64,000 bases of DNA from Escherichia coli (GTDB taxonomy: Bacteria; Pseudomonadota; Gammaproteobacteria; Enterobacterales; Enterobacteriaceae), in NCBI RefSeq assembly GCF_013122565.1, contig NZ_CP053258.1. The stretch is one strand, 5' to 3'. Below the pieces are notes generated by a model. That model made no database searches, was not told the origin of the DNA, and saw only the letters and a list, made by a program, of their open reading frames with translations. Positions 23,936 to 24,180 of this stretch are shown one piece after another; the stretch's first letter is position 1, and every line of letters starts with the position of its first letter. Made by a program: the position numbers and the translations under genes.

Positions 23936-24180
23936 AGAAGTTCCTTACACATAAAAAAAACGGCCAACGTCGGAAGACGTCAGCCGCTGCTTTTTATGCA
24001 TAGACCTCGCCTTCCGGCAAGGTCTCACTTACAACAAAAAAGGAATACGTCTGCGTATTCCTTTCGGGTTGCCCGGTGACCGGATGTGTTTTTTCACACA
24101 TCGTAATGACGATCGACCGGCAATGAAGTTACTCCCCTTTGCAGGTAACAAAGTATGACAGACCATTCAGCCAGTCAATG
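23936..24180 (-). promoter_or_regulatory. alx 5' leader: yybP-ykoY (Mn-sensing) riboswitch-like element with two hairpin-plus-U-run structures
   Basis: Minus strand carries GGGGAGUA (plus-strand tactcccc at 24130–24137), a perfect hairpin ggaatacg-caga-cgtattcc followed by U6 (24036–24066), and a second imperfect hairpin plus U8 just upstream of the ribosome-binding site. Confidence 0.5.

Follow-up and report, generated by a model that had tools for sequence, protein, structure and literature searches.

The leader of the alx gene in this stretch of Escherichia coli DNA (64,000 nucleotides, in the following simply the window) is almost certainly the E. coli alx leader known as the PRE, that is, a Mn2+-sensing yybP-ykoY riboswitch built as a three-way junction, in which alkaline pH tunes the response to Mn2+. 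The element is already known: its ligand, two terminators, pauses, alternative folds and the crystal structure of its aptamer have all been published, as have reporter and probing experiments, and the alx 5' UTR of K-12 has been described as a Mn2+- and pH-responsive yybP-ykoY riboswitch (PMC12153347, PMC10197570, PMC12934788). For this reading, the identity to the K-12 sequence, the helices with their covariation and the energetics were computed here, and Mn2+ binding, reporter responses, termination efficiencies and pauses were taken from published experiments. A riboswitch controlling alx through pausing, termination or access to the ribosome-binding site (RBS) had been predicted from the sequence of the window, and this holds by identity to K-12: pausing and RBS occlusion belong to the published model, and the terminators B and D are both published.

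The locus and the aptamer

The leader lies on the minus strand between the ygjR stop at 24219 and the alx ATG at 23935. The gene order is ygjR-alx-sstT, with the same flanking genes in K-12. From the ygjR stop to the alx start, the sequence equals the K-12 MG1655 alx 5' UTR at all aligned positions, except for one extra T, and the locus was matched in 5,419 of 5,426 complete E. coli genomes. Alx itself matches Pfam TerC (PF03741, E 1.3e-53) and its product is annotated in K-12 as 'Mn(2+) exporter Alx'. Through this TerC-family protein, the leader holds a position upstream of a Mn2+ homeostasis gene, as is usual for the family. In the RefSeq records, an RNA feature at the alx leader is absent. 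The elements framing the leader are the following:

22970..23935, minus strand: alx CDS, 321 aa, TerC-family membrane protein (Mn2+ exporter)
24150..24178, minus strand: putative sigma-70 promoter read from the sequence, with -35 TTGACT at 24178-24173, a 17-nt spacer and -10 TACTTT at 24155-24150
24143, minus strand: probable transcription start, +1 = U, from matching the published numbering to the sequence

The promoter was not called by a consensus promoter scan. With +1 at 24143, a transcript position n corresponds to the window coordinate 24144-n, and all four published numbers fit, namely A11 (L1), A37 (L3), U18.A114 and C19.G23 (PMC12153347, PMC12934788). The terminators then fall at +108 and +190/191, in agreement with the published sites. 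The position of the putative promoter also fits this start.

On the other side of alx, the alx-sstT spacer (window 22540-22965, minus strand) carries a GC-rich segment of about 430 nt in place of the K-12 spacer of about 210 nt. This segment is found at full length at the alx-sstT locus in 1,659 of 5,426 E. coli genomes, almost always unannotated, with partial copies elsewhere (median of 3 places per genome). Its part at 22716-22855 gives a sub-threshold match to TwoAYGGAY (31.1 bits at a gathering score of 43, E 0.005 in the 426-nt scan).

To compare leaders, the Alx protein was used to scan one genome per species, which gave 80 loci ranging from Escherichia to Serratia, Pantoea and Erwinia, and 73 distinct Enterobacterales leaders were aligned. 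The aptamer would span from +1 (24143) to about +127, with P1.1-L1-P1.2 as the right leg, P3.2-L3-P3.1 as the left leg, and P4. The strands of its two legs are:

24126..24142, minus strand: 5' strands of P1.1, L1 (GGGGAGUA, 24137-24130) and P1.2, the switch strand, invariant in 73/73 leaders
24073..24120, minus strand: left leg with P3.2, the 7-nt L3 bulge UCAUUAC (24109-24103) and P3.1, a hairpin whose loop is A-rich, backed by compensatory changes
24017..24030, minus strand: 3' strands of P1.2, L1 (GAGA) and P1.1, AAGUGAGACCUUGC, invariant

The family motif GGGGAGUA, which the original prediction had placed on the minus strand, is indeed present at 24137-24130, where GGGGAGTA has its sole copy in the 64-kb window. 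On its own GGGGAGTA is not beyond chance (0.71 copies expected, at least one copy in 50 of 100 shuffles). Regarding the paired motif, GAGACC at 95-115 nt downstream of GGGGAGTA was found once in the window versus 0.01 expected. Across the 73 leaders, the core elements GCAAAGGGGAGUAACUU, AUCGUCAUUACG, CCGGU and GUAAGUGAGACCUUGCCG vary hardly or not at all. P1.1 (6 pairs) and P1.2 (4 pairs) are 100% paired and, together with L1, invariant; covariation is silent on these pairs because the strands never vary. The L1 5' strand GGGGAGUA, which carries the extruded adenosine, is also part of the RF00080 consensus and of the mntP leader. The L1 3' strand GAGA(CC) lies at the right distance, with P1.1 and P1.2 closing the loop, and the crystal contact U18.A114 (PMC12934788) agrees with the P1/L1 sequence of alx. 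In the ON state, the 3' strand AAGUGAGACCUUGC would be paired to the 5' switch strand; in the OFF state, it would lie paired inside P5.

In the case of the left leg, compensatory changes were detected in 6 of 11 pairs of P3.2, a count which includes 24121/24071, where the C19.G23 pairing is possible instead, and in 5 of 6 pairs of P3.1. A 7-nt L3 bulge with the conserved adenosine sits between P3.2 and P3.1, as in the family. Its sequence, UCAUUAC, is the alx-type variant and differs from the family consensus ACAUACU; the same alx-type consensus is given in PMC12153347. Two candidate pairings were discarded. A P3.2 formed by CCGG with the nearer CCGG at 24083-24080 was rejected, as compensatory changes favour the distal ACCGG(G)C. 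The invariant G-C 24121/24071 as outermost P3.2 pair was dropped from the model, the crystal structure pairing that G with C19 (PMC12934788).

The four-way junction with a P2 helix that is typical of the family is not formed here. Because only CAUUG separates P1.2 from P3.2, there is no room for P2, and the alx aptamer has been described as a three-way junction lacking it (PMC12153347, PMC12934788). The field regards this junction as a variant inside the yybP-ykoY family and not as a ground for exclusion.

In Atlantibacter sp. RC6 (L023:1089-1203), a deletion, apparently between two direct TTGCCGG repeats, has removed the aptamer interior (P3, L3, P4 and the L1 3' strand) and joined the L1 5' strand directly to the P5 loop; in the related A. 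hermannii (L027), the aptamer is complete. The leader of Atlantibacter sp. RC6 may be, judged by its sequence, a natural constitutive or dead variant. Rouxiella aceris (L075:~1100-1203) is without an aptamer and shows only a P6-like hairpin with U7, following what appears to be the end of the upstream coding region.

P4 and termination site B

The first of the two predicted hairpins, a perfect 8-bp stem followed by U6, was found where expected (24061-24036):

24033..24070, minus strand: P4 helix (hairpin B) with loop CAGA and U6 at 24041-24036, site B, from the terminator scan and the inverted-repeat search

It reads GGAATACG-CAGA-CGTATTCC, with eight perfect pairs (24061-24054 with 24049-24042) and T6 at 24041-24036, and could be extended to 12 pairs (24065-24038). 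This hairpin is the aptamer's own P4 helix and no separate regulatory module. The foot of the helix shows compensatory changes in 3 of 3 base pairs in the 73 leaders, and an intrinsic termination site has been located within P4 of the alx aptamer (PMC12153347). Both hairpins show the arrangement of an intrinsic terminator, a stem-loop containing G+C directly followed by a U-run, and both are included in the 3 sites that the terminator scan returned in 800 nt versus 0.9 expected. The prediction of two hairpin-plus-U-run structures stands, both being published terminators, with the correction that the first belongs to the aptamer.

P4 with its U6 tail would act as a partial intrinsic terminator before the aptamer is completed; at site B (~108 nt), termination in vitro amounts to 43-46% (PMC9472077). 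Just 10 of the 73 leaders (Escherichia, Pseudocitrobacter, some Enterobacter and Lelliottia, a few others) carry five or more consecutive U on the 3' side of P4, and the other 63 lack such a run. The combination of hairpin and U-run is therefore a lineage-restricted elaboration of a variable helix, and the alx-type class as a whole does not share the P4 terminator.

Some further observations concern the P4 sequence. In the hairpin at window 24036-24065, the 5' arm AAAGGAAUA repeats the alx Shine-Dalgarno (SD) sequence AAGGAA, and because of this the 3' arm UAUUCCUUUU is a perfect anti-SD, which could in principle pair with the RBS at 23946-23941. This SD-like form of P4 is restricted to leaders of the Escherichia, Citrobacter, Kluyvera and Leclercia type. 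In Escherichia albertii NBRC 107761 (L004:896-1098), P4 carries an insertion of about 150 nt with REP-like palindromes, on either side of which stands a copy of the P4 hairpin, GAAAGGAATACGCAGA[T/C]GT[G/A]TTCCTTT; promoter, L1, L3 and the entire expression platform of this leader are intact. ERIC-like elements lie inside P4 in Siccibacter and Franconibacter (L014, L032). The aptamer model described below still gives about 66 bits for the leaders of E. albertii, Siccibacter and Franconibacter. Such repeated large REP/ERIC insertions in P4 are consistent with a peripheral helix.

The expression platform and the proposed switch

A third strong hairpin, P5, which the original prediction had missed, carries the switching logic together with an alternative P5/P6 helix, here called the relay helix. 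The platform comprises:

24002..24025, minus strand: P5 hairpin (hairpin C), AGACCUUGCC-GGAA-GGCGAGGUCU, 10 bp, from folding and inverted-repeat search, named P5 in PMC12153347
23971..24016, minus strand: relay helix, CGGAAGGCG (24016-24008) with CGUCUUCCG (23979-23971), from inverted-repeat search and covariation
23950..23998, minus strand: P6 terminator (hairpin D) with loop UUCC and U8, site D, from terminator scan, folding and inverted-repeat search
23933..23946, minus strand: RBS AAGGAA at 23946-23941, spacer CUUCU and AUG at 23935-23933, read from the sequence

The imperfect hairpin with U8 that had been proposed directly before the RBS corresponds to P6 and is present at 23988-23953, with 13 pairs including G-U (23988-23959), then T8 (23960-23953); the stem is extendable via CAUAAAAA/UUUUUAUG (23998-23991/23957-23950). 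Likewise, the AAGGAA of the RBS lies as predicted at 23946-23941, 5 nt before the alx ATG. The U-run after P6 is the only difference to K-12, T8 here versus T7 there, which moves the AUG from +208 to +209 and the RBS by 1 nt. An exact 86-nt match with the T8 allele occurs in 899 of 5,419 E. coli genomes (~17%), including O157:H7 and O145. It may be added that T8 (window 23953-23960) makes the terminator tail longer.

Regarding conservation, P5 is 91% paired across the homologs, with one-sided changes only and no two-sided ones, and its outer pairs are broken in many genera. The relay helix is 99.4% paired in the 73 leaders with compensatory changes in 3 of 9 pairs (e.g. CGGAAG/CUUCCG in E. coli versus CGAAUG/CAUUCG in Citrobacter). 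P6 shows compensatory changes in 4 of 11 pairs, and a U-rich tail follows it in 73 of 73 leaders. The ON structure as a whole is 98.3% paired in the 73 leaders (slid partners, 29.6-43.9%), with 17 pairs changed on both sides versus 9.9 in shuffles; none of 500 shuffles reached 17. The relay helix can coexist with neither P5 nor P6. Although they exclude each other, P6 and the relay helix are thus both selected for pairing, and two exclusive helices kept in this manner are the signature of a switch. Altogether, the covariation gives independent support to the published ON-state relay helix.

ERIC-like repeats were also seen in this region. Erwinia persicina (L046:~1040-1170) carries an ERIC-like element within P6, and Phytobacter diazotrophicus (L026) carries one between the terminator and the RBS; taken together with Siccibacter and Franconibacter, the ERIC-bearing leaders still score 66-96 bits with the aptamer model.

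The leader folds with an MFE of -99.8 kcal/mol (z = -9.7), and 0 of 200 shuffles were as good. The free fold, with P5 and P6 formed and L1 paired to the RBS region, has an MFE of -101.1 kcal/mol, compared to -86.9 kcal/mol for the P1-locked fold and -80.0 kcal/mol for P1 together with the relay helix. In this MFE fold, the partner of L1 (GGGAGU) is ACUUCU, and that of the AAG in the SD is CUU. When P1 is locked in transcripts 173-185 nt long, the MFE fold is the relay helix; with P1 held closed, P6 surpasses it only marginally once the 3' arm of P6 has been made. With only P1.1 and P1.2 forced closed, P6 was expected to melt and the SD to become free; instead, equilibrium folding keeps P6 in 73 of 74 leaders and pairs the SD more often. 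As P6 persists with P1 closed, equilibrium folding cannot capture the alx switch, and we do not count its outcome against the riboswitch.

These folds suggest the following mechanism. In the absence of Mn2+ (OFF), the P1.1/L1 3' strand GAGACCUUGC would be captured in hairpin P5. P6 would then form as a second terminator directly before the RBS and, in E. coli, the freed L1 strand would pair with the RBS region. With Mn2+ bound (ON), L1 would dock on L3 and keep P1.1 and P1.2 closed; because of this, GAGACCUUGC would be held in the aptamer and P5 would be prevented. The released CGGAAGGCG could pair with CGUCUUCCG once the latter is transcribed, by which the 5' arm of P6 would be captured, P6 blocked and the RBS left open. 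Because the OFF fold is far more stable at equilibrium, the choice between ON and OFF would be kinetic and made during transcription.

Published work agrees with this picture in several respects. A co-transcriptional decision has also been argued for, with P5 and P6 as the inactive platform versus an alternative P5/P6 helix as the active one; while the platform is inactive, its RBS is paired to a disrupted P1.1/L1 (PMC12153347). RNAP pauses at 142-144 and at 177/183/184 (PMC9472077). L1 and L3 show Mn-dependent protection, and the Mn-dependent differences that in vitro co-transcriptional probing detected in the expression platform are modest (PMC12153347). The crystal structure of the aptamer is available (PDB 9JGM), and smFRET showed docking that is stabilised by Mn2+ and sensitised by alkaline pH (PMC12934788). 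At the level of expression, a translational reporter was induced 68-fold by alkaline pH, 21-fold by 500 uM MnCl2 and 86-fold by both, and induction was lost without the alx leader (PMC10197570).

Which output is the conserved one, read-through at P6 or opening of the RBS, is the part of our reading that we infer. The leader could be primarily a transcription attenuator, whose conserved output is P6 versus the relay helix as antiterminator and in which RBS occlusion is minor or specific to E. coli; we consider this improbable, though it is the alternative that survives best. The U-rich tail in all 73 leaders and the compensatory changes in both P6 and its competing helix would fit it, as would the 5-fold (alkaline pH) and 2.7-fold (Mn) increases of a transcriptional reporter (PMC10197570). 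The ACUUCU spacer, needed for the pairing of L1 with the RBS, varies between genera. Additionally, predicted SD accessibility does not follow the ON and OFF states: its mean unpaired probability from the partition function was 0.50 with the OFF fold imposed versus 0.54 with the ON fold (P1 and relay helix) imposed, with 30 of 73 leaders up and 20 down, although these are equilibrium predictions for a kinetically controlled RNA. Against attenuation as the primary mode, site D (~190 nt) stops only 10-13% of complexes in vitro, barely dependent on pH (PMC9472077), and the translational reporter responded 68-fold versus 5-fold for the transcriptional one (PMC10197570). It seems rather unlikely that across the alx-type class the conserved output is the choice between P6 and the relay helix, i.e. 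read-through at site D, with L1-RBS occlusion and site B as add-ons of Escherichia and a few neighbours. If this were true, termination in P4 would serve certain lineages as a gain control, by which about 45% of transcripts are lost ahead of aptamer completion, and site D would be tuned through the T7/T8 polymorphism.

Considerably less probable is that the hairpins with U-runs mainly terminate read-through from ygjR, or release a stable sRNA (SraF) acting in trans. From the ygjR stop (24219) up to the alx promoter, the scan found no other terminator-like site, Rouxiella keeps just a P6-like hairpin upstream of alx, and the leader was first detected as the sRNA SraF of about 190 nt, all of which would speak for this role. 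However, the hairpins are part of a riboswitch architecture that the whole order conserves and with which they co-vary, the P4 U-run is missing from 63 of 73 leaders, and we know of no trans target of the alx leader RNA.

Very unlikely, too, is a purely pH-responsive element in which alkaline pH prolongs RNAP pausing at two sites and so leads to the active fold, with no ligand involved. Historically, the PRE was explained in this way (Nechooshtan et al. 2009, summarised in PMC9472077); the pauses do exist near +142-144 and +177-184 (PMC9472077), and the 68-fold alkaline induction is strong (PMC10197570). Yet the dwell times at the pauses are shorter at pH 8.5, not longer (PMC9472077), Mn binding is a prerequisite, as alkaline pH alone cannot switch the RNA (PMC12153347), and with citrate as chelator the 69-fold pH induction drops to 9-fold (PMC10197570). 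The invariant Mn-core of L1 and L3 in 73 leaders would also be hard to explain without a ligand. The published loss of induction refutes pH as the sole mechanism. Finally, a chance meeting of the GGGGAGUA octamer, by itself unremarkable at 0.71 expected copies of GGGGAGTA, with ordinary intergenic hairpins can be dismissed given the rarity of the paired motif (0.01), the fold z-score of -9.7, the invariant core and compensatory changes across 73 genomes, and the sequence identity to the experimentally characterised K-12 element.

Covariance models and known relatives

A covariance-model scan for the yybP-ykoY family had been proposed as a check on the riboswitch, with the lack of a match as part of its refutation. 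RF00080 is silent on the alx leader, yet the element is genuine. With Rfam 15, RF00080 gave no match at E<=10 in the 361-nt scan, in the K-12 copy or in 20 homologous loci, none at the gathering threshold across the window, and none in the 8-kb scan; the alx leader thus stays below the threshold of 45 bits. As a positive control, the E. coli mntP leader was scored with RF00080 and reached 41.6 bits (E 8.8e-9), itself below 45 bits, a threshold that is an operational criterion of Rfam 15 and not a biological one. The printed RF00080 consensus contains a P2 hairpin and the canonical L3, leaves the L1 strand unpaired and has no GAGACC strand. RF00080 therefore misses alx because its consensus carries P2 and the canonical L3, both of which alx is without. 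After the mntP control and inspection of the printed consensus, the silence of RF00080 was rejected as evidence against a riboswitch. Since the control works, 'no covariance-model match' is a false negative here and unusable as a refutation.

An alx-type covariance model was then built from 68 aptamers. Seven held-out leaders scored 93-101 bits and nothing else was detected in the 64-kb window; overall, alx-type leaders were detected at 93-118 bits. On mntP, this model aligned only the outer shell GGGGAGUA...GAGACC, correctly placed, at 5.1 bits (E 0.31). The riboswitches of alx and mntP appear, at the level of sequence, to share the metal-binding shell with no alignable interior. Consequently, automated annotation (Rfam 15, RefSeq) misses alx-type three-way-junction Mn riboswitches, and, as RF00080 is blind to these leaders, a missing covariance match must not be used to dismiss them.

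Other matches in the window are unrelated to the alx leader. These are naRNA4/REP-type elements at 30700-30781 (70.4 bits) and, weaker, at 27777-27920, and further Rfam matches at 5831-5873 and 46354-46426, an ES036 sRNA (39 bits) and one tRNA.

Compared to known systems, the alx PRE of K-12 (alx/ygjT 5' UTR) is the same element, as P1.1, P1.2, P3.1, P3.2, P4, P5, P6, the terminators and the RBS all map onto the leader described here; it differs by U7 after P6, in place of U8.

In the case of E. coli mntP, a four-way-junction yybP-ykoY riboswitch, the similarities are the L1 shell closed by P1.1 and P1.2 and the 7-nt L3 bulge between two helices. Both are reportedly translational and activated by Mn2+, and each precedes a gene for a Mn2+ exporter. 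In contrast to mntP, alx lacks P2, with about 5 nt (CAUUG) between P1.2 and P3.2 and hence a three-way junction, has UCAUUAC and not ACAUACU as L3, and adds a terminator in P4, two extra platform hairpins and a response to pH. The two models do not cross-detect.

The transcriptional yybP-ykoY switches of Bacillus subtilis and Lactococcus lactis have the same Mn2+-binding L1/L3 core as alx and regulate the same class of gene, as ykoY and Alx both belong to the TerC family. As in alx, the 3' strand of P1.1 is shared with a downstream structure and the ligand prevents the terminator hairpin. In these switches, P1.1 is overlapped directly by the one terminator present, whereas alx interposes P5 and the relay helix between aptamer and terminator, places the terminator against the RBS and reportedly acts mainly on translation.
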